From: a virus
Lineage: Duplodnaviria; Heunggongvirae; Uroviricota; Caudoviricetes
DNA: 9,726 nt
Strand: one strand, 5' to 3'
IMG/VR virus record: IMGVR_UViG_2731957841_000002
Span: 1 to 9,726 of that record
Shown: positions 1 through 9,726 of the stretch, piece after piece
Layout: each line of letters begins with the position of its first letter
Position numbering within the stretch: the stretch's first letter is position 1
Translations under genes and position numbers: made by a program
The notes under the pieces: model-generated
The model's database searches: none
Told to the model about the DNA's origin: nothing
Seen by the model: the letters and a program-made list of their open reading frames with translations, nothing else

Positions 1-1155
1 ATGCTCACCGTTAAGCAGATTGAAGCAGCAAAGCCGAAAGAAAAACCATACCGCCTACTCGATGGTAATGGCCTGTACCTTTATGTCCCTGTGTCAGGGA
101 AAAAGGTATGGCAGCTTCGCTACAAGATTGACGGTAAGGAAAAAATACTGACCGTAGGAAAATATCCGCTAATGACTTTGCAGGAGGCAAGAGATAAAGC
201 ATGGACCGCGAGGAAAGACATCTCGGTTGGCATCGATCCGGTAAAAGCGAAAAAGGCTTCGTCTAACAACAATTCCTTTAGTGCGATTTACAAGGAATGG
301 TACGAGCACAAGAAGCAAGTCTGGTCAGTAGGCTATGCAAACGAACTTGCCAAAATGTTTGATGACGACATTTTACCCATCATCGGCGGTCTTGAGATTC
401 AGGATATTGAGCCGATGCAACTGTTGGAAGTAATCCGCAGATTTGAAGATCGCGGTGCAATGGAGCGAGCCAACAAAGCACGCAGAAGATGCGGCGAGGT
501 TTTCCGTTACGCTATTGTCACTGGTAGGGCTAAATATAACCCGGCACCTGACCTTGCTGACGCCATGAAGGGATACCGCAAGAAGAACTTCCCGTTTCTT
601 CCAGCAGACCAGATCCCGGCATTCAACAAAGCACTGGCAACATTTTCAGGAAGTATCGTATCGCTCATTGCGACCAAAGTTTTACGCTACACAGCCCTAA
701 GAACGAAAGAACTTCGCTCCATGCAATGGAAGAACGTCGATTTTGAAAACAGGATTATCACCATCGACGCCAGTGTGATGAAGGGACGCAAAATTCATGT
801 GGTCCCGATGTCAGACCAGGTGGTTGAACTTCTCACTACGCTAAGCTCAATCACCAAACCAGTCTCAGAGTTTGTTTTTTCCGGGCGCAACGATAAGAAG
901 AAGCCAATCTGCGAGAACGCGGTATTGCTTGTGATCAAACAAATCGGCTATGAAGGCCTGGAAAGCGGTCACGGATTCAGGCATGAATTCAGCACGATTA
1001 TGAACGAGCACGAATGGCCTGCTGACGCTATTGAAGTGCAGCTGGCACATGCCAACGGCGGATCTGTGCGCGGTATTTACAACCATGCTCAGTATCTCGA
1101 TAAGCGCAGAGAAATGATGCAGTGGTGGGCGGATTGGCTTGATGGGAAGGTGTGA
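1..1155 (+). CDS. intS: Tyrosine site-specific integrase, P4 family (IntS-like)
   Basis: 384-aa ORF. N-terminus MLTVKQIEAAKPKEKPYRLLDGNGLYLYV fits the P4-integrase arm-binding domain pattern. C-terminal catalytic region has GHGFRHEF (His/Arg) and RGIYNHAQY (candidate Tyr nucleophile). Symbol assigned from memory of E. coli IntS; not verified. Confidence 0.9.
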   Translation: MLTVKQIEAAKPKEKPYRLLDGNGLYLYVPVSGKKVWQLRYKIDGKEKILTVGKYPLMTLQEARDKAWTARKDISVGIDPVKAKKASSNNNSFSAIYKEWYEHKKQVWSVGYANELAKMFDDDILPIIGGLEIQDIEPMQLLEVIRRFEDRGAMERANKARRRCGEVFRYAIVTGRAKYNPAPDLADAMKGYRKKNFPFLPADQIPAFNKALATFSGSIVSLIATKVLRYTALRTKELRSMQWKNVDFENRIITIDASVMKGRKIHVVPMSDQVVELLTTLSSITKPVSEFVFSGRNDKKKPICENAVLLVIKQIGYEGLESGHGFRHEFSTIMNEHEWPADAIEVQLAHANGGSVRGIYNHAQYLDKRREMMQWWADWLDGKV

Positions 1156-2402: not shown

Positions 2403-2576
2403 TTCATCAATATATTCAGGGGGCAAAAACCTACCCTCTGAATATGTATACCCAACACCAACAACGCTATTGTCGTCAAGCTTTATACAGAGATAATCAT
2501 CGTATTGTTTTCCATCGCCGTTCCATAATATAACGTTAATCACAACATCATTTTCTACCAATGCATATTTCATCAT
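2397..2576 (-). CDS. Small hypothetical protein (59 aa), translationally coupled to the upstream fibre gene
   Basis: Hand-translated: MMKYALVENDVVINVILWNGDGKQYDDYLCIKLDDNSVVGVGYTYSEGRFLPPEYIDEL. Its ATG (2576-2574) overlaps the fibre gene TGA (2575-2573) as ATGA. Below the length cut-off of the supplied ORF track. Its 3' end overlaps the convergent acyltransferase stop by 6 bp. Confidence 0.4.
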   Translation of the reverse strand: MMKYALVENDVVINVILWNGDGKQYDDYLCIKLDDNSVVGVGYTYSEGRFLPPEYIDEL

Positions 2577-3475
2577 GCATACTCCCAGATAAGAACAATA
2601 CCATTACCACCGGCGGCTCCGTTATATTGGGTGGCATTATTCACATATGCGTTAGCCCCACCGCCCCCAGCCCCGAAACCAGTCGGCAATACACCGATAC
2701 CCGCTGAGCCGTGTGGATTACCACCCACACCTAATGGACTATTACCTCCGCCACCAGAGATGATAGAGCTAGTCGATATAGCCATGCCAATAGTTGGATT
2801 CTCTCCAGAGAGATTTAAAATATTACCTCCGGATGCTATAGGAATTCCTGGTGAGTTCTGAATAATAGGAGGTACCCCATTTCCTGAACCACCACCAAAT
2901 CCACCGCCAGCGGTTATAGATCCGAAAGAAGATCCACCACCGTTTCCTCCATTACCGTTAACCCCACCAGCTCCACCAGCTCCAATGGTTACAGTATATG
3001 CTGAGTCTAAATTGGTGATACGGGATTTAGCGTAGGCGCCACCTCCCCCTCCACACCCAACTGCAACACTGGTAGAGTTAGTTGTACCAACCCCGCCCCC
3101 TCCTCCGCCTGCGCCTTGGACTTCAACAATAATGCTTTTCGTTCCTGGGGTTGGCGTATAAGTCCCGGATGTCGTTATTGTGCGAACACCAATAAGCCGT
3201 CCTGTTGCAGCCTGCTCTACCGCACTCGCTAATTGCGCAGAGAGCCCCGCAATATCACCATTATCTTTCACATCCTCACTGGTATTATCTGCGATAAACT
3301 GCCCCACAGCAGCCGCCATTGCCGTTCCTTGCCTCAGACCTTTGTTCACCTGAGCACTTGATGCCTTCCCCGATGTAAAGCCAGCAGATAGGACAGGTAA
3401 TGATTCCCAGTCTGTCTGAGTTGTTACGTTAGCACCAGAGCCAGTTGCAAATGGTTTAAATTCATTTTTAGCCAT
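2573..3475 (-). CDS. Glycine-rich phage tail-fibre-like protein
   Basis: Long GGxGG/GNGG tracts typical of phage fibre or collar proteins. N-terminus MAKNEFKPFATGSGANVTTQ. Start chosen at ATG 3475-3473, overlapping the upstream gene stop as TGATG. The ORF track's alternative start at 3493 adds 6 codons but has an SD only 1 nt from the ATG. Confidence 0.7.
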   Translation of the reverse strand: MAKNEFKPFATGSGANVTTQTDWESLPVLSAGFTSGKASSAQVNKGLRQGTAMAAAVGQFIADNTSEDVKDNGDIAGLSAQLASAVEQAATGRLIGVRTITTSGTYTPTPGTKSIIVEVQGAGGGGGGVGTTNSTSVAVGCGGGGGAYAKSRITNLDSAYTVTIGAGGAGGVNGNGGNGGGSSFGSITAGGGFGGGSGNGVPPIIQNSPGIPIASGGNILNLSGENPTIGMAISTSSIISGGGGNSPLGVGGNPHGSAGIGVLPTGFGAGGGGANAYVNNATQYNGAAGGNGIVLIWEYA

Positions 3476-4155
3476 CAGAGTAATTTCCCCCATGCTCCTA
3501 CATCAAAACCACTGATGAATTCGTTATCCATATCAAAACCAAAAAATTTTGAACCTTCCGATGGAGTTTCCACCGAAGGTGTTTCAATGCCACCCGCCCA
3601 CACACCGGCGGCTTTTACTGTGAGATACCCCTGTTTAATTGCCGCAATTAACTCACGCGATACATCTGAAATATCAGTATCAGGAAAGACCCAGACCGAT
3701 ATCGTCATGTCCTGGTTATCGACAATCTGCATTCGCAGCCCGGCTCCTGCTGTCGCCGTGTCAAGAATTGCCGGAAGCGAATCATTCCGTCCGTCCCAGT
3801 TATTAATCGCAATCTTCGCTTTAAGGATGACACGATAAGTTTCATCGCTGAGGTACATGTATCCGGAATCAGGATCGTATGGCCCCTGCCATACACCCTG
3901 ATCATATCCAAGCCCGTCGGTATCCCAGCTGAAATAGATACCTGAGATAGGCTGGCTGACAACACGGCTACGCCCGATCCACAATCCCAGAATGTCAAGT
4001 TGCACACCAACGGCAGAGTCAATATCAAATGCAGTAATCAGCCCTCTGGTGGCAGCCGCAACATCAATAAGCGGCCGGGTCATCAGATCAACATGCGCAA
4101 GAAATTTAGGTTTGGTGGCGTGGTAGTTCGTGATTAGTTCGGTGTATTTGCTCAT
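3475..4155 (-). CDS. Phage tail/baseplate-associated protein of unknown function (possibly DUF2612-type)
   Basis: 226-aa ORF in an operon with the fibre gene. ATGA overlap with the upstream 172-aa gene. Family assignment is from memory and tentative. Confidence 0.7.
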   Translation of the reverse strand: MSKYTELITNYHATKPKFLAHVDLMTRPLIDVAAATRGLITAFDIDSAVGVQLDILGLWIGRSRVVSQPISGIYFSWDTDGLGYDQGVWQGPYDPDSGYMYLSDETYRVILKAKIAINNWDGRNDSLPAILDTATAGAGLRMQIVDNQDMTISVWVFPDTDISDVSRELIAAIKQGYLTVKAAGVWAGGIETPSVETPSEGSKFFGFDMDNEFISGFDVGAWGKLL

Positions 4156-4670
4156 GACTCCACCGTTATAACGATATTTTCCGGGGTACAGGACGCAGAT
4201 TCGTTATATCTGATATCAATGTTTGATGACGACAAAGCCCCCGGGGATTTCCCAATCGTCAGTTCCTGAATATCGTAATAGCGTGCATTACCGGTTTTAG
4301 CGTTGGCATTATCCGGTTGTTTCTGGAACGCAACACTGCGTGCCGTGATGATGTCGCCGCTGACCTTGTTGCGGATCACGATAACGTTATTCCCCCATGT
4401 GGCAGAAGACTGGCTCTGTGCGTTATACGCCAGCGACAATTTTTTATTTGTCGGTGATGTCTTCAGAAGGTTAACGGTAATCGTCCCGCTTTTATCTGCA
4501 TGGAGACTGTGCATCACTTCGCCATCAGCACCGATGGTCATGGTGTTTTTAGGACCGCCCATCGCAACCACAATCCCCTCTTCAGAACTTGCAGAACCGT
4601 ACCCGAGGTCAATCGAACCGGTCGGCCCGGTCAGCGTCGCAGTGACATCCATAAAAGAATAGGTAGACAT
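4152..4670 (-). CDS. Phage tail-module protein, unknown function (172 aa)
   Basis: First gene of the leftward tail remnant. SD-like AAGGGGAAG upstream of the ATG at 4670. Coupled to the downstream gene. Confidence 0.7.
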   Translation of the reverse strand: MSTYSFMDVTATLTGPTGSIDLGYGSASSEEGIVVAMGGPKNTMTIGADGEVMHSLHADKSGTITVNLLKTSPTNKKLSLAYNAQSQSSATWGNNVIVIRNKVSGDIITARSVAFQKQPDNANAKTGNARYYDIQELTIGKSPGALSSSNIDIRYNESASCTPENIVITVES

Positions 4671-4937: not shown

Positions 4938-4993
4938 ACAAAAAATACATCTTGTGCATGGATGGTTTTAGTACAGAGCGTAATAATAAGGGT

Positions 4994-5653
4994 ATGAAAA
5001 TGAAATGGTATGAACTGGCTAGATCCAGAATGAAAGAGCTCGGCATAACTCAAGAGAAGTTAGCTGAAGAGCTTGGTATGACGCAGGGTGGAATTGGTCA
5101 CTGGTTGCGCGGATCTCGTCATCCATCTCTTGACGAGATTGGTGTGGTGTTTAAATACCTTGGTATTGATAACGTCTCATTCAACCACGACGGTACATTT
5201 TCACCTGTTGGCGAATACTCATCTGCCCCCGTTAAAAAACAATATGAGTACCCTGTTTTTTCTCATGTTCAGGCCGGGATGTTCTCGCCTGAGCTTAGAA
5301 CCTTTACCAAAGGTGATGCGGAGAGATGGGTCAGCACAACCAAAAAAGCCAGTGATTGTGCGTTTTGGCTTGAAGTTGAAGGTAATTCCATGACCGCGCC
5401 AACAGGATCCAAGCCAAGCTTTCCTGACGGGATGTTAATTCTCGTTGACCCTGATCAGGCTGTTGAGCCAGGTGATTTCTGCATAGCCAGACTTGGTGGT
5501 GACGAGTTTACCTTTAAGAAACTGATCAGGGATAGCGGTCAGGTGTTCCTCCAGCCACTAAACCCGCAATATCCAATGATTCCATGCAATGATAGCTGTT
5601 CCGTAGTAGGGAAAGTTATCGCCAGCCAGTGGCCTGAAGAGACATTTAGTTAA
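4994..5653 (+). CDS. cI: CI-type prophage repressor (HTH N-terminal domain plus S24 LexA-like autopeptidase C-terminal domain)
   Basis: C-terminal half nearly matches lambda cI as I recall it: [50 protein letters not shown] (Ser nucleophile), FTFKKL (Lys), plus an Ala-Gly cleavage site in QAGM. N-terminal HTH domain is unlike lambda. Start placed at ATG 4994 (AAGGG upstream) rather than the TTG at 4952 in the ORF track. Confidence 0.9.
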
Positions 5654-5684
5654 CAGCCTCACCACTCTAAAACACACAACAATA

Positions 5685-5713
5685 ACCCGACCTTAGCGTC
5701 GGGTTTTCTTTTT
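5685..5713 (+). terminator. Intrinsic terminator downstream of cI
   Basis: Stem ACCCGAC (5685-5691) / GTCGGGT (5698-5704), 6-nt loop, then TTTCTTTTT (5705-5713). Confidence 0.6.
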
Positions 5714-5778
5714 CCAAAATATAAACCCATTAAATACAAAGCGTTATAAAAAACTAATTATATTTAGAACATTTTGTA

Positions 5779-5807
5779 TTGACTCGATAAAGTACAAATC
5801 GTACTAT
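5779..5807 (+). promoter_or_regulatory. pL-like early-left promoter
   Basis: -35 TTGACT (5779-5784), 17-bp spacer, -10 TACTAT (5802-5807). The downstream transcript start region ATCAGCAGGACGCACTGACC matches the lambda pL transcript start as I recall it. Confidence 0.5.
5791..5805. promoter_or_regulatory. Candidate repressor operator (palindrome AGTAC-N5-GTACT) overlapping the pL -10
   Basis: Perfect 5-bp inverted arms. Related AGTAC/GTACT motifs recur in the cro-cI intergenic region (4921-4925, 4970-4974). Confidence 0.3.
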
Positions 5808-5846
5808 TTAGCCATCAGCAGGACGCACTGACCACCATGAAGGTGA

Positions 5847-5877
5847 TGCTCTTAAAAATTAAGCCCTGAAGAAGGGC
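5847..5877 (+). promoter_or_regulatory. nutL-type antitermination site (boxA TGCTCTTAA plus boxB hairpin GCCCTGAAGAAGGGC)
   Basis: boxB (5863-5877) is identical to the lambda nutL boxB. boxA (5847-5855) differs from lambda CGCTCTTAA at its first base and resembles the rrn-type boxA TGCTCTT. Spacer is AAATTAA as in lambda. Confidence 0.7.
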
Positions 5878-6049
5878 AGCATTCAAAGCAGAAGGCTTTG
5901 GGGTGTGGTGAAGGGTTCATGGATGGGAATATGTCGCACGTAAAGCGGCGAGGCCTGCGGAACTATTGCCGAATTGAAGTCGGCCGAAGCAGGTCGAAAT
6001 GGGTCTCCCACCTACCACACCACCAAAGCTAACTGACAGGAGAATCCAG

Positions 6050-6253
6050 ATGGCAAAGCAATCAAAACCATCACCTACACCTGAACAGGTTCTAAAAGCA
6101 TTCACTGACGCAGCAATGCAGAAAAACACCGTGGAAGAGCTTAAACAGGCGTTCGCCAAAGCGTGGAAGATGCTCGAAGGAACACCGGAGCAGCACAAAG
6201 CGCAGGACGTTTACAACATCAGACGAGACGAATTAGAAGGAGCGGCTGCTTAA
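6050..6253 (+). CDS. Hypothetical small protein (67 aa) in the position lambda N would occupy; not N-like
   Basis: AGGAGA RBS and ATG context match the lambda N start region as I recall it, but the protein (MAKQSKPSPTPEQVLKAF...) has no arginine-rich motif. The ORF track's upstream extension from 5999 lacks an RBS. Confidence 0.6.
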   Translation: MAKQSKPSPTPEQVLKAFTDAAMQKNTVEELKQAFAKAWKMLEGTPEQHKAQDVYNIRRDELEGAAA

Positions 6254-6636
6254 TGGCACATTCGATTACTGTAAGACTAAACAAACCCGCAAGAGAGTTT
6301 CAGGCCGGGGAAAATATCGGATTCAACATCCGTGCTGGCGTTCAGTATTACGATCGCCAGACAAAAAAGAAAGAATGGACAAACTACAGCGCCGTTGTAT
6401 TTGCCAAGCCAGGAGCGCAAGCGGATTACTACCGTAGTGTTCTTGTTGAAGGTGGCATTGTGGAAATTACCGGAGAAAACATCAGGGTTGATGTTTATCA
6501 GGGGCAAAATGGTCAATCAATCACTCTTGAATTACTGAATGCAAAGATTGGATTTGCAACTTCAGGAAACAGCCAACAGCAGCAAAGTAGCAATCATCAA
6601 AATCATCCTGAATACGACGATTCAATTCCCTTCTAA
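6253..6636 (+). CDS. SSB-like single-stranded DNA-binding protein (short form, 127 aa) with conserved acidic C-terminal tip
   Basis: C-terminus ...PEYDDSIPF resembles the E. coli SSB tip DFDDDIPF, preceded by a Q-rich linker. The N-terminal ~100 aa is compatible with an OB fold (KEWTNYSAVVFAK, VEGGIVEITGE). TAATG stop/start overlap with the upstream gene. Confidence 0.7.
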   Translation: MAHSITVRLNKPAREFQAGENIGFNIRAGVQYYDRQTKKKEWTNYSAVVFAKPGAQADYYRSVLVEGGIVEITGENIRVDVYQGQNGQSITLELLNAKIGFATSGNSQQQQSSNHQNHPEYDDSIPF

Positions 6637-6659
6637 AGTAGCAAAATAAGGATTCCATT

Positions 6660-6953
6660 ATGCCAGCGCCTCTGTATGGTGCGGATGACCCGCGCCGCTG
6701 TTCCGGCAATTCCGTATCGGAGGTGCTGGATAAATTCAGAAAAAACTACGACCTGATAATGTCGCTACCGCAGGAAACGAAAGAGGAAAAGGAATTTCGT
6801 CATTGTATATGGCTTGCAGAGAAAGAAGAGCGCGAGCGAATTTACCAGACATCAATCCGACCATTCCGCAAAGCCACATATACCCACTTCCCTGAAATTG
6901 ACCCGCGCCTGCGTAATTACCGCTCACGCTATGGCGCTATCAGTAATGACTGA
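6660..6953 (+). CDS. Hypothetical protein (97 aa)
   Basis: AAGGA RBS 7 nt upstream of the ATG. Operon context. No recognisable domain. Confidence 0.6.
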   Translation: MPAPLYGADDPRRCSGNSVSEVLDKFRKNYDLIMSLPQETKEEKEFRHCIWLAEKEERERIYQTSIRPFRKATYTHFPEIDPRLRNYRSRYGAISND

Positions 6954-6963
6954 GGAATTAACA

Positions 6964-7254
6964 ATGAAAACAATGAAGCTAAACATCGACCTCGGAAAAT
7001 ACGTTATTACCGGAACCAAACACGACCTGATTCTTAGTGAAATAGGAATTATCAAAGAAGGTGAGAATGCAGGGAAAGAAACACTAAGTCGTATCGGTTA
7101 TTACAGCAAGTTTGAGCATCTGGTTAAAGAGTTATGCAACCGTGAAATTCTGTTATCTCAGGCGCAGACGTTACAGGATATTCAGCAGCATATCGAGACT
7201 TTATGTGTGTCACTTAGCATGGCTATTGACCAGTTCGTGGAGAGTAAATCATGA
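6964..7254 (+). CDS. Hypothetical protein (96 aa)
   Basis: GAGGAA RBS upstream of ATG 6964. The ORF track's longer version from 6814 overlaps the preceding gene and lacks an RBS. Confidence 0.6.
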
Positions 7255-7415
7255 GAGGACTTGCATACAATCCCGGCATTCTTCCGGCAGAAATGATTAT
7301 TCGCCAACGCGTAAAGCCAATGCCATCGAGAGAGGAATTGCTTAAGAGAAATTCTTTTCCGTCAGTAAATCAAAACAAATATCTGAATGCGATGTTGCGG
7401 AGTGGGAAAAAATGA
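7251..7415 (+). CDS. Hypothetical small basic protein (54 aa), translationally coupled at both ends
   Basis: Hand-translated: [58 protein letters not shown] overlap with the upstream gene stop and ATGA overlap with the downstream gene start. Below the ORF-track length cut-off. Confidence 0.35.
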
Positions 7416-7963
7416 AACAAATGTCACTAATTGAGATGGATGGTTTTCTGAAAGATAAATGCATCCCAAGTGATTTAAAGGTTAACGAAACAAACGCTGA
7501 ATATCTGGTGCGTAAATTTGCTGAAGCGGAGGCCAAGATTTCGGCTCTGTCCGAAGACCAGCAGAGAGCGATTGAGTCAATTAAGCAGGCTGATGCAGCT
7601 GTTAAGTTGGCACACGAGAAGTTTTCGGCGCTTGCGGCGGAGAATGCGGTAATGCTCGAAACTATTGAAGCCGTTCGCAGTGTTGCGGATAACTCCAGTG
7701 GAATTGCCGGATGGCATTTGAATGGCGATATCGCCACATGGGAAGAGATTCTTCCTGAAATTAACGATATCGAAACCCCAGCCACCGATGCTTTCCTGGC
7801 TGAAGTACGGGCGCAGGGGGTAGAGATGTACGCAGATAACCTCGACAACGTAGCAGACGACGCAGAACGAGGTGGTTTTGATTATGCCGTTAAGTTTCTA
7901 CGCAGTGAAGCGTCTAGTGTACGTTTGTTCGCCGACCAGCTTCGCAAAGGAGGCAACCAGTGA
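7412..7963 (+). CDS. Hypothetical acidic protein (183 aa)
   Basis: Operon context. GTGA overlap with the downstream gene. The antisense 168-aa ORF over the same region is low-complexity and judged spurious. Confidence 0.65.
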
Positions 7964-8484
7964 GCAAGATTGACTATCAGGCACTGCGTGAGTTAGCAAA
8001 ACAGGCAACACAGGGTGAATGGGTCGCATTTATTTCGCCGGGCAAATACGGCACGTACGCCGTACACACACCAGGTGATAATCATCACGGAGATATTGTC
8101 GACTGGCCAGGATTCGACGAACAGAAAAACGCAGAGAACAACGCTCGTTATATCGCAGCTTTCAACCCTGAAGTAGTGCTGGCACTGCTGGATGAACGGG
8201 AAAGAAACCAGCAATACATAAAACGCCGCGATCAGGAGAACGAGGAAATTGCGTTAACGGTAGGGAAGTTGCGCGTTGAGCTTGAGGCAGAAAAACAGCG
8301 GGCAAAGGATCTGTTTATGGAAAATGCTCGGCTTAAGTCAGGTATAGCCGGTCTGATACACCTCGGTATTCGATATGCAGATGTTGAGGTCATGAAAATT
8401 GCTGGAGATGCCCAGCTTTCTACCCCATGCACTGACAGCATCATAAACAGCATTGCAACAGGCATTCGCATCAAAGGAGAGTAA
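7960..8484 (+). CDS. Ead/Ea22-like early protein
   Basis: N-terminus [21 protein letters not shown] matches the conserved N-terminal signature of Ead/Ea22-like lambdoid early-left proteins as I recall it. GTG start with AAAGGAGG RBS. Confidence 0.75.
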   Translation: MSKIDYQALRELAKQATQGEWVAFISPGKYGTYAVHTPGDNHHGDIVDWPGFDEQKNAENNARYIAAFNPEVVLALLDERERNQQYIKRRDQENEEIALTVGKLRVELEAEKQRAKDLFMENARLKSGIAGLIHLGIRYADVEVMKIAGDAQLSTPCTDSIINSIATGIRIKGE

Positions 8485-8686
8485 TATGAGCAGGAATACG
8501 GGTTTGTAAAAGATAACGCTTGTGAAAATGCTGAATTTCGCGTCGTCTTCACAGCGATGCCAGAGTCTGTAGTGTCAGATGATGACCGTACTCAAACATC
8601 GGGTTGAGTATTATCTTACTGTTTCTTTACATAAACATTGCTGATACCGTTTAGCTGAAACGACATACATTGCAAGGAGTTTATAA

Positions 8687-8968
8687 ATGAGTATCAATGA
8701 GTTAGAGTCTGAGCAAAAAGATTGGGCGTTATCAATGTTGTGCAGATCCGGTGTCTTGTCTCCATGCAGACATCACGAAGGTGTTTATGTAGATGAAGGT
8801 ATAGATATAGAGTCGGCATACAAATATTCCATGAAGGTTTATAAGTCTAATGAAGACAAATCCCCATTCTGCAATGTGCGAGAAATGACTGATACCGTGC
8901 AAAATTATTATCACGAGTACGGTGGAAACGATACTTGCCCTCTCTGTACAAAACATATAGATGATTAA
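8687..8968 (+). CDS. Hypothetical Cys-containing small protein (93 aa), AT-rich
   Basis: AAGGAG RBS 8 nt upstream. Five Cys including a CPLC pair. Preceded by a 200-bp intergenic region and followed by tandem terminators, a moron-like arrangement. Confidence 0.6.
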   Translation: MSINELESEQKDWALSMLCRSGVLSPCRHHEGVYVDEGIDIESAYKYSMKVYKSNEDKSPFCNVREMTDTVQNYYHEYGGNDTCPLCTKHIDD

Positions 8969-8986
8969 ACCAAATATTACATAACA

Positions 8987-9015
8987 ATCCTCGCACTCGC
9001 GGGGATTTCTTTTAT
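8987..9015 (+). terminator. Intrinsic terminator (first of tandem pair)
   Basis: Stem ATCCTCGC / GCGGGGAT (one G-U wobble), 4-nt loop ACTC, followed by TTCTTTTAT. Confidence 0.5.
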
Positions 9016-9018
9016 CTG

Positions 9019-9044
9019 AACTCGCTACGGCGAGTTTTGTTTTA
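9019..9044 (+). terminator. Intrinsic terminator (second of tandem pair)
   Basis: Stem ACTCGC (9020-9025) / GCGAGT (9030-9035), loop TACG, followed by TTTGTTTTA. Confidence 0.55.
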
Positions 9045-9056
9045 TGGAGACAAGAA

Positions 9057-9401
9057 ATGTCAGATTTGGCTATGAAGGTTTTGAAATGGCAATCGACTAG
9101 CGATGTCAGTATCAGTAGCGCAACTCTTGCCTCAATCGCATGTGGACTGAAAAAGAATATCTATGGTCATCACTTCGGCGCTCCCCATGACGCAGCAGAC
9201 TTTCGGCGATGCGTTGCACTTGTTGAGCAGATTCCAGAAATCAGAGATTCATTCAACAAGGTTGCAAAGCGCGTTCCGGCATTCAAAGGAATCCTCAACG
9301 AATGGGATTCCCTCGTTGCTCTGTTGAAGTCTGAAATGAAGATACACGGAAACAAAGCACCAGAGACTTACAGAAGAATCAGCGAGCTACGCAAGGACTA
9401 A
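9057..9401 (+). CDS. Hypothetical protein (114 aa)
   Basis: GGAGA RBS upstream. Lies between the terminator pair and torI. A short hairpin (GCCTCA...TGAGGC, 9407-9425) follows it. Confidence 0.6.
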   Translation: MSDLAMKVLKWQSTSDVSISSATLASIACGLKKNIYGHHFGAPHDAADFRRCVALVEQIPEIRDSFNKVAKRVPAFKGILNEWDSLVALLKSEMKIHGNKAPETYRRISELRKD

Positions 9402-9525: not shown

Positions 9526-9726
9526 ATGCAACACGAACTACAACCTGATTCACTGGTTGATTTGAAATTCATCATGGCTGATACTGGCTTCGGTAAGACC
9601 TTCATCTATGACCGGATTAAGTCCGGCGACCTGCCTAAAGCCAAAGTTATCCACGGACGAGCAAGATGGTTATATCGTGACCATTGTGAATTCAAAAATA
9701 AGCTCTTAAGCCGCGCCAATGGGTAA
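9526..9726 (+). CDS. torI: Excisionase / recombination directionality factor, TorI-like
   Basis: 66-aa protein MQHELQPDSLVDLKFIMADTGFGKTFIYDRIKSGDLPKAKVIHGRARWLYRDHCEFKNKLLSRANG matches TorI of E. coli KplE1 as I recall it. GGAGA RBS upstream. The window ends at its stop codon. Confidence 0.9.
   Translation: MQHELQPDSLVDLKFIMADTGFGKTFIYDRIKSGDLPKAKVIHGRARWLYRDHCEFKNKLLSRANG

Follow-up and report, generated by a model that had tools for sequence, protein, structure and literature searches.

An abc2-DUF5405-DUF2737-EaE/Oad2 gene block in the early-left operon of a KplE1-type cryptic prophage

What do four closely packed early genes in a decaying prophage encode, and which process might they serve? 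In the window, the whole 9,726-nucleotide stretch of DNA analysed here, an initial annotation had singled out four chained ORFs in a lambdoid early-left operon, regarded none as recognisable, and proposed them as uncharacterised host-interaction or anti-defence proteins. We identify the window as a cryptic Escherichia coli prophage of the KplE1 (CPS-53) type and the four-gene block as an ordinary, already described module of P22/HK97/Sf6-type phage early operons. The block is probably the distal end of a recombination/anti-RecBCD module together with the first mosaic ea genes, from the PL operon of a Sf6/HK97/HK446-like phage and kept in the KplE1-type prophage (table 1).

Table 1. Positions and supporting evidence of the features in the window
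Feature	Coordinates	Strand	Evidence or remarks
cI-type repressor gene	4952-5653		Upstream of the PL-like promoter
Terminator of the cI-type repressor gene	5684-5705		Precedes the PL-like promoter
PL-like sigma-70 promoter, TTGACT-17-TACTAT	5779-5807	+	TACAAA/TTTGTA operator-like repeats flank and overlap the promoter
N start codon fused in frame to Erf residues 136-201 (67 aa), deletion scar	6050-6253	+	Comparison with intact locus L020; phrog_1097 (Erf C-terminus)
SSB-like protein, HK97 gp40 type (SSB-1b), 127 aa	6253-6636	+	phrog_44, E 1.8e-28
ORF1, abc2, anti-RecBCD protein 2, 97 aa	6660-6953	+	PF11043; phrog_656; PDB 8B1T/8B1U
ORF2, DUF5405 protein, 96 aa	6964-7254	+	PF17399; phrog_154; alignment; AF2 model
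ORF3, DUF2737 protein, 54 aa, pI 11, very basic	7251-7415	+	PF10930; phrog_1117; alignment
ORF4, EaE/Oad2-family protein, HK97 gp37-type allele, 183 aa, pI 4.5	7412-7963	+	phrog_614, E 4e-57
Swappable C-terminal cassette of ORF4, residues 136-175	7817-7936	+	Bounded by two invariant coding motifs, the distal one QLRKGG
Ead/Ea22-family protein, 174 aa, GTG start in GTGA overlap with ORF4	7960-8484	+	PF13935, E 5.3e-37, 127.9 bits
Lambda ea8.5-family gene	8687-8968	+	PF20735, E 1.1e-48
First + strand terminator-like hairpins	8986-9007, 9018-9037	+	Terminator scan; would end the PL transcription unit

Transcription unit and gene order

The four ORFs share one terminator-free stretch 3′ of a repressor-controlled PL-like promoter; from 5807 as far as 8986, a terminator scan found none on the + strand. 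Positions 5636-5913 align at 99% identity with the part of phage vB_EcoP-720R6 that spans cI, PL, and nutL. Within this segment, the hairpin GCCCTGAAGAAGGGC at 5863-5877 (+) is presumably a lambda-type nutL boxB; the terminator/stem-loop scan puts the stem-loop at the same positions on the opposite strand. N, the would-be user of this element, is gone: compared with the intact locus, a deletion of ~1.96 kb took out N, cIII, kil, a 56-aa gene at the gp33 position, and the first 135 erf codons. An origin of this deletion by microhomology was considered and dropped, the apparent 17-nt overlap being an alignment artefact and the true junction sharing at most one base. In HK620 the region removed between N and erf carries the tL terminators, so the block would be transcribed without N on derepression. 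An Rfam scan of the whole window returned no RNA family.

The proposed ORFs of 97, 96, 54, and 183 aa, all on the + strand, hold up as real genes under purifying selection: all have strong PHROG matches, three exceed the curated Pfam cut-off, and dN/dS against phage homologues ranges from 0.07 to 0.6 across the four. An antisense ORF (7342-7848, 168 aa) was rejected as a gene, purifying selection acting on the + strand frame. None of the four proteins matched an NCBIfam profile or, at E up to 0.01, a PADLOC defence-system model. Their position behind an SSB-like gene likewise stands; this SSB, of the HK97 gp40 type named SSB-1b (PMC12315714), is 98-99% identical to its HK446 and 720R6 homologues. 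As for the reported chain of overlapping stop and start codons, 4-nt overlaps do join ORF2, ORF3, ORF4, and the Ea22-like gene, with ATGA at 7251-7254 and 7412-7415 kept in related phages, but ORF1 and ORF2 do not overlap: the TGA stop of ORF1 (6951-6953) is followed by a 10-nt spacer with GAGGA and the ATG at 6964. An in-frame ATG at 6946 would extend ORF2 to 102 aa and into ORF1; the extra residues are missing in the homologues, which start MKTMKL or MKL, and ATG 6964 is favoured because the Shine-Dalgarno sequence is correctly spaced for it. The end of the unit at 7963 proved arbitrary, since the GTGA overlap carries the chain into the Ead/Ea22 gene.

The order abc2-(DUF5405)-DUF2737-EaE-like-Ea22 is common to HK446, 720R6, Sf6, P22, HK97, HK620, HK75, and ST104. 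Nor are the four ORFs novel; all belong to named, widely distributed families annotated in public phage and E. coli records, and the module occurs, at least in part, in about one third of complete E. coli genomes. Beyond the block, the first 31 nt of the Ea22-like gene after its initial base (7961-7991) are 100% identical to the Sf6 "bsq3" boundary sequence, and a segment of the same gene is 90% identical to lambda ea22. The block fills the interval that in lambda separates the recombination genes from xis, and ea22-like and ea8.5 genes come after it, as they do in the exo-xis region of lambda.

Abc2 and two small proteins

ORF1 is full-length Abc2, for which RecBCD binding and Chi alteration are predicted. 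It aligns with PF11043 over positions 1-97 of 97 (E 6.2e-65, 215.9 bits, cut-off 25), with phrog_656 (E 4e-55), and with P22 Abc2 in complex with RecBCD (PDB 8B1T/8B1U, E 2.8e-59); dN/dS is 0.09-0.2. So secure a match to a well-studied phage protein is of the kind that the initial annotation had itself named as a refutation, and the view that none of the four was recognisable does not hold. The assignment to the early-left (PL) operon of a lambdoid prophage was right, and Abc2 is the P22 functional counterpart of lambda Gam. ORF1 and P22 Abc2 are equal in length and share 93-95% of their residues. No difference falls within residues 1-64, which cover the RecC-contacting helices (modelled 3-52; 3-66 with PpiB); Pro68 is kept, and the five to seven substitutions fall within the disordered C-terminal third. 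In the solved structure of P22 Abc2 with RecBCD, helices contact RecC, and the host isomerase PpiB engages Pro68 (PMC9836394). Rather than blocking RecBCD, Abc2 steers it to the phage annealing protein (PMC9836394; PMC5928155). Abc2 and Gam both neutralise the threat that RecBCD poses to the phage, yet Abc2 has no sequence relationship to Gam, binds RecC, and leaves DNA entry unblocked. The operon place of ORF1 is that of P22 abc2, after the annealing-protein gene and the SSB/abc1 slot; unlike in P22, an HK97-type SSB replaces abc1 here, and the recombinase partner of Abc2, Erf, is truncated.

ORF2 is a small, acidic DUF5405 protein, supported by PF17399 (25.3 bits, cut-off 21.6), phrog_154 (E 2.4e-31), and dN/dS of 0.07-0.19. 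Sf6 gp24 and HK446 gp29 match it at 95-98% identity. Its AF2 model is confident (pLDDT 89.3, β4-α2 fold), and the best BFVD matches of the model are themselves DUF5405 proteins (TM 0.74-0.84). Comparison of junctions shows DUF5405 to be an optional cassette: where present, it fits precisely into the boundary between the abc2-distal Shine-Dalgarno/spacer and the DUF2737 start codon; P22, HK97, HK620, and HK75 lack it. The family is found in P2-like, N4-like, and other phages, in the early region of temperate as well as virulent ones. ORF2 is ~34% identical, and equal in size, to the orf83 product of P2 and the P2-like L-413C; orf83 has the TraR-like orf82 on one side and replication gene A on the other, whereas ORF2 follows abc2. 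Longer DUF5405 relatives drawn from a search of 1.8 billion proteins offered no informative domain fusion. DUF5405 is thus a confidently folded early protein of many unrelated phages without a solved relative.

ORF3 is a DUF2737 protein matching PF10930 over positions 1-53 of 53 (E 3.4e-32, 110.5 bits, cut-off 25), with dN/dS of 0.08-0.46. Identity is 77% with P22 Orf56 and 94% with the Sf6 and HK446 copies. P22 Orf56, HK97 gp38, and HK620 HkaI share its place and its ATGA coupling to the EaE-like gene, with no notable difference from ORF3. All DUF2737 homologues are small, stand-alone proteins. PDB sequence searches with ORF2, ORF3, and ORF4 gave no match below E 0.5, and our literature searches found no relevant paper on DUF2737, DUF5405, or P2 orf83.

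ORF4 and its cassettes

ORF4 is homologous to HK446 gp27 (Oad2, OLD anti-defence 2). Oad2 binds P2 OLD, an ABC-ATPase/TOPRIM tRNase, and prevents its activation; P2 OLD acts as an abortive tRNase that fires when RecBCD is compromised (July 2026 preprint, bioRxiv 10.64898/2026.07.10.737580). A screen of an HK446 library for OLD inhibitors yielded gp27 alone, gp28 and gp29 not being recovered; HK97 and HK75 are OLD-sensitive, the HK75 homologue fails to inhibit OLD, and the specificity of Oad2 is narrow (bioRxiv 10.64898/2026.07.10.737580). ORF4 occupies the identical place, between the DUF2737 gene and the next ea gene, and shares with Oad2 an N-terminus of 45 residues at ~90% identity, one internal motif, and a QLRKGGNQ tail, but its middle region and C-terminal cassette belong to other sequence types; overall identity is 40% by BLASTP (E 2e-37) and 46% by MAFFT. 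At the DNA level, short conserved islands match HK446 at 7766-7817 and 7927-8003. HK97 gp37 is far closer (84% identical, its middle region and cassette of the types in ORF4), followed by the HK75 homologue (68%, cassette type in common). With these relatives coming from OLD-sensitive phages, an anti-defence role of the window allele would be an extrapolation. HK97 gp37 and HK620 HkaH share mosaic family and gene place with ORF4, as does P22 EaE (phrog_614), although the latter has only one motif and an LRKG tail in common with it (29% identity).

Among 117 close homologues and phage alleles, made up of 109 proteins from the database, 7 alleles from phages, and ORF4 of the window itself, we counted fifteen unrelated cassette types, 23-67 aa long. 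The type of the window is the commonest (49 of the 117) and is also carried by HK97, HK75, and HK620; that of Oad2 is rare (2 of 117). The EaE/Oad2 family thus combines one conserved scaffold with at least 15 interchangeable C-terminal cassettes, the target being known for one allele only, and its variants provide a ready panel for matching alleles to the defence proteins they block. In the AF2 model of ORF4, a long helix over residues 26-93 follows the conserved N-terminus, and a linker of low confidence leads to a C-terminal helical hairpin; the model is confident only over residues 123-179, with low confidence elsewhere. Foldseek retrieved nothing from the PDB at E ≤0.001, only generic helical bundles, and no Pfam family, Ead_Ea22 (PF13935) included, matched ORF4 at E up to 0.1. 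In the literature we found no functional data on the P22 EaE, HK97 gp37, or HK620 HkaH alleles; the sole mention of hkaH and hkaJ was in a screen for filamentation, in which the neighbouring kil explains the phenotype.

Since the middle region of ORF4 is that of HK97 and its cassette that of HK97 and HK75, both phages being OLD-sensitive, ORF4 probably targets another variant or system and not P2 OLD itself. By analogy with Oad2, ORF4 would assemble into a coiled-coil oligomer and, through its variable parts, bind a defence protein guarding RecBCD or recombination and silence it. Silencing of such a guard would account both for the location of ORF4 beside genes that tamper with RecBCD and for the frequent swapping of its cassette. 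ORF2 and ORF3 would most likely be further small host-protein binders, co-expressed with the other genes. Regarding host interaction or anti-defence, the initial proposal was apt in that Abc2 acts on RecBCD and ORF4 is homologous to Oad2, while "uncharacterised" was wrong for ORF1. We can put forward only tentatively a more specific version, in which the HK97-gp37-type allele would inhibit not P2 OLD but a different defence protein, with the cassette and/or the middle region as specificity module, and in which DUF5405 and DUF2737 would be additional anti-defence or host-hijack factors. Possible targets in such a reading include a further system of the OLD family or of related ABC-ATPase/TOPRIM type, or some other guard of RecBCD.

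Alternative roles and present use

A role for ORF4 and its Ea22-like neighbour in modulating the lysis-lysogeny decision, as for the pro-lysogenic lambda Ea22, and not in anti-defence, seems to us distinctly improbable. Some database sources do name close ORF4 homologues "Ead/Ea22-like family protein", phrog_368 matches both ORF4 and its neighbour, the short N-terminus, coiled coil, and small C-terminal domain of ORF4 recall the three-domain description of Ea22 (PMC10834534), and the location of the gene corresponds to the exo-xis region, a region with genes that affect lysogenisation (PMC10834534). Yet, besides escaping PF13935, ORF4 has no detectable similarity to lambda Ea22 and aligns only locally and marginally with the adjacent Ea22-like protein (E 0.17), and Oad2, the sole family member tested experimentally, directly binds and inhibits OLD (bioRxiv 10.64898/2026.07.10.737580). 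For ORF2 and/or ORF3, we regard as unlikely a function as recombination or replication accessory factors, like P22 Abc1 and Arf, in place of antagonism of host defence. Both are placed directly after erf-ssb-abc2, the equivalent P22 module contains the poorly understood helpers Abc1 and Arf, and in P2-like phages orf83 runs up against replication gene A and overlaps its start. The label that PHROG gives to phrog_154 is "replication initiation protein", but we found no experimental basis for this label, the lone trace in structure searches being an annotation on phage phiKT. The optional nature of DUF5405 also speaks against such a function, as does the C-terminal half of DUF2737, which in the virulent Jerseyvirus SE2 also turns up beside genes for lysis and terminase.

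A further possibility, to which we give limited credence, is that the block is inert cargo of a decaying prophage, surviving only through its proximity to the attR end and without present function for cell or phage. The defective remnant of ~9.7 kb retains only three tail/baseplate genes, and, in addition to the loss of N through the first 135 erf codons and the resulting truncation of the Abc2 partner, sister strains bear other deletions, one of which takes out abc2 and ssb. Conversely, the ORFs from 6253 to TorI are intact throughout, as are promoter and repressor, and independently deleted variants agree at 100% identity from ORF2 to TorI, which is weak evidence of selection given that these variants are recent. 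The inert-cargo view bears on the present use of the genes and not on their identity.

Four genes of named families

Our findings place all four genes downstream of the SSB-like gene (ORF1 to ORF4) in named families, annotated already in public entries for phages and E. coli, and we hold these identities with high confidence; the block is an ordinary module, described before. Pfam matches above the curated cut-off were obtained for three of the four and strong PHROG matches for all. The initial annotation had found none recognisable and took them for candidate uncharacterised host-interaction proteins, a view that ORF1 contradicts at once: it matches PF11043 over its full length (215.9 bits) and the solved P22 Abc2 chain (8B1T/8B1U; E 2.8e-59), with residues 1-64 identical, Pro68 present and seven substitutions in the C-terminal third. 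At 94.8% identity to the P22 copy (tblastn against the P22 genome), ORF1 is identified as Abc2. In P22, P68 of Abc2 is engaged by PpiB, and the helicase and nuclease activities of RecBCD are little changed (PMC9836394), which fits a hijack that puts RecBCD at the service of the phage annealing protein; for HK620, and for lambdoid recombination modules at large, the same role is described (PMC5928155, PMC12315714).

On its matches to PF17399 (25.3 bits, cut-off 21.6) and phrog_154 (E 2.4e-31), and with 95-98% identity to Sf6 gp24 and HK446 gp29, ORF2 is a DUF5405 protein. Phrog_154 carries the label "replication initiation protein", behind which we found no experiment. The confident AlphaFold2 model (pLDDT 89.3) has four β-strands followed by two helices, with structural relatives in Bacillus, Lactobacillus and Cellulophaga phages. 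The family forms 964 clusters at 50% identity in a library of 1.84 billion proteins and was found in 157 phage records; among these are N4-like Schitoviridae, and P2-like phages in which the gene is orf83, between TraR-like orf82 and gene A. ORF3, a basic protein of 54 residues (pI 11, net charge +7.5), is assigned to DUF2737 by PF10930 (E 3.4e-32) and is 77% identical to P22 Orf56, with equivalents in HK97 gp38 and HK620 HkaI. Its homologues, present in 292 phage records, are always small stand-alone proteins with an invariant core, REE-L-R-SF, and the C-terminal half is also seen in the virulent Jerseyvirus SE2; a search found no relevant literature on DUF2737.

ORF4, very acidic (pI 4.5, net charge -15) and without a Pfam match, hits phrog_614 (E 4e-57) and has homologues in at least 7,996 clusters. 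Aligned with phage alleles (MAFFT), it is 84% identical to HK97 gp37, 68% to HK75 gp28, 66% to HK620 HkaH, 46% to HK446 gp27 and 29% to P22 EaE; by BLASTP the identity to HK446 gp27, which occupies the same genomic slot, is 40% (E 2e-37). A recent preprint recovered gp27 from a random HK446 library, screened in a recB mutant for relief of P2 OLD toxicity, named it Oad2 (OLD anti-defence 2) and related it to P22 EaE; Oad2 binds OLD directly and blocks tetramer activity (bioRxiv 10.64898/2026.07.10.737580, July 2026). Judged by these similarities, assignment of ORF4 to the EaE/Oad2 family is sound.

Features of the window
Feature	Position	Strand	Size	Remarks
IntS	1-1155			left end of remnant
Three remaining tail/baseplate genes	2573-4670	-	306, 226, 172 aa	Gly_rich_2; Phage_Wedge1; Phage_Tube_PhiTE
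Repressor (HTH and S24 peptidase)	4952-5653			intact, as is its own terminator
PL-like promoter	5779-5807			intact; TACAAA/TTTGTA operator-like repeats
SSB-like gene	6253-6636		127 aa	upstream of ORF1; phrog_44
ORF1	6660-6953	+	97 aa	Abc2
ORF2	6964-7254	+	96 aa	DUF5405
ORF3	7251-7415	+	54 aa	DUF2737
ORF4	7412-7963	+	183 aa	EaE/Oad2 family
TorI	9526-9726			right end; excisionase-like, response-regulator inhibitor

Junctions, selection and cassette mosaicism

All four reading frames of the initial annotation are present, on the plus strand, and the overlapping stop and start codons said to chain them are found, as ATGA, at ORF2/ORF3 and ORF3/ORF4; ORF1 and ORF2 do not overlap, the TGA at 6951-6953 being followed by 10 nt of spacer in which GAGGA stands seven bases 5' of the ATG at 6964. 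The limit drawn at 7963 is arbitrary, as a GTGA overlap leads on to the next gene (7960-8484). Upstream, a 23-nt spacer with AAGGA separates ORF1 from the SSB-like gene, which shows 98-99% identity with HK446 gp31 and with its counterpart in 720R6 and belongs to the HK97 gp40 type, named SSB-1b (PMC12315714). HK446, Sf6, HK97, HK620 and HK75 keep the stop/start overlaps as well as the spacer of 10 nt behind abc2. Pairwise dN/dS against phage homologues was 0.09-0.2 for ORF1 when set against close relatives, rising to 0.40 with the most diverged; for ORF2, ORF3 and ORF4 the ranges were 0.07-0.19, 0.08-0.46 and 0.38-0.62, respectively. The four are real genes under purifying selection.

DUF5405 is a precise optional cassette, lying between the abc2-distal spacer and the DUF2737 start codon (6940-6975 and 7230-7275). 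In HK97, HK620 and HK75, which are without it, a nearly identical spacer joins straight to the DUF2737 ATG, and P22 and ST104 have the same direct join with a more diverged spacer; by this comparison its presence or absence is a gene-sized indel at a gene boundary. The ORF4 family is itself strongly mosaic. Among 117 sequences (109 database homologues, seven phage alleles and the window's own), a conserved N-terminal stretch of 45 residues is followed by a helical segment prone to indels, a middle region that in 108 is of the window's type, an invariant 11-residue motif, a C-terminal cassette (23-67 aa; at least 15 types unrelated to one another), and a QLRKGG tail, likewise invariant, whose codons include the next gene's SD. 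In the AF2 model of ORF4, a long helix (26-93) and a linker of low confidence precede a helical hairpin (123-179) that is modelled confidently and holds the cassette; Foldseek returned nothing specific for it. The window's cassette is the commonest (49/117), common to HK97, HK75 and HK620; that of Oad2 is rare (2/117). Because both the cassette and the middle region of Oad2 are of other types, activity of the window's allele against P2 OLD seems unlikely. The homologue in HK75 shows 54% identity to Oad2 and no inhibition of OLD, and both HK97 and HK75 are OLD-sensitive (bioRxiv 10.64898/2026.07.10.737580).

A prophage remnant and its deletions

Along its entire length the window shows 99.99% identity to an E. 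coli assembly (GCA_049563155.1), where it lies between yfdC and dsdC-dsdX-dsdA, and by its content it is a whole KplE1/CPS-53-type remnant, from IntS to TorI. In another strain (L020) the operon is intact and runs cI, N, cIII, kil, a gene of 56 aa in the place of the OLD trigger gp33, erf (201 aa), SSB, abc2, DUF5405, DUF2737, ORF4, Ea22, ea8.5, a 114-aa gene and TorI. Against it the window is short of about 1.96 kb, comprising N and the three genes after it together with erf codons 1-135; at 6050-6253 Erf residues 136-201 follow in frame on the ATG of N, which keeps its ribosome-binding site, to make an ORF of 67 aa, with at most one base of microhomology at the junction (6052/6053). What we take to be a lambda-type nutL boxB, GCCCTGAAGAAGGGC, is intact at 5863-5877, and boxB and the N leader are thus retained in a window that has no N gene. 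A scan for plus-strand terminator-like hairpins found none between 5807 and 8986, and the tL terminators of HK620 lie within the region deleted here; we therefore infer that the block, if derepressed, would be transcribed without N, and the N-erf deletion may give distal PL genes N-independence. In other E. coli strains, three loci of the same prophage type (L016, L018 and L019; 7065-7553, compared with window 6053-6879) carry an independent deletion, with erf truncated at 139 aa and the SSB gene and abc2 gone. From 6879 to TorI (2,848 bp) they are 100% identical to the window, so the attR-proximal accessory genes survive in several decay variants.

Of 5,426 complete E. coli genomes, 1,744 have at least part of the block and 25 have all four genes together; in the assembly collection, the ORF4 protein in its exact form is indexed for 180 blocks.

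Possible roles and neighbouring features

The block is one terminator-free stretch below a repressor-controlled promoter, translationally coupled and with cassette mosaicism. Abc2 rewires RecBCD through RecC (PMC9836394), and the ORF4 homologue Oad2 neutralises a defence nuclease that fires once RecBCD is compromised (bioRxiv 10.64898/2026.07.10.737580). We suggest that phages tampering with RecBCD may put inhibitors of RecBCD-guarding systems beside their genes for recombination; among these inhibitors would be ORF4, its variable parts setting specificity, and ORF2 and ORF3 could be further small binders. By analogy with Oad2, an anti-defence role for the window's ORF4 is possible, if tentative; for ORF2 it is doubtful, and for ORF3 equally so. 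That ORF4 is instead an Ea22-like lysogeny modulator is improbable, as it neither matches PF13935 nor resembles lambda Ea22. That ORF2 and ORF3 help in recombination or replication, for which only position and the database label speak, we consider unlikely. For present use it is plausible that the whole block is inert cargo in its host, a reading that leaves the gene identities unchanged. Residual interest lies in the specificity of the EaE/Oad2 cassettes and the functions of DUF5405 and DUF2737.

Elsewhere in the remnant, a low-GC (~33%) acyltransferase-3 family gene (1308-2402, 364 aa) adjoins the integrase, in the slot of O-antigen modification genes in Sf6 and P22-like phages, and is probably a lysogenic conversion gene of O-antigen acetylase type. 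Sister loci have larger structural sets that include Baseplate_J as well as a sheath initiator; together with the remaining tail/baseplate genes these point to a structural module of contractile-tail type, not P22-like, and to a mosaic prophage. Between ea8.5 and torI, a basic 114-aa ORF (9057-9401) without a Pfam match, flanked by terminator-like hairpins, belongs to phrog_1229 (E 1.2e-49). Over its first 31 nt (7961-7991) the Ea22-like gene is identical to the boundary sequence annotated in Sf6 as "bsq3". Identity with lambda is 90% for 8176-8295, against part of ea22, and 94% for 8461-8700, against the ea22-ea8.5 interval; from these identities, 7961-7991 and 8176-8700 are clear mosaic joints.
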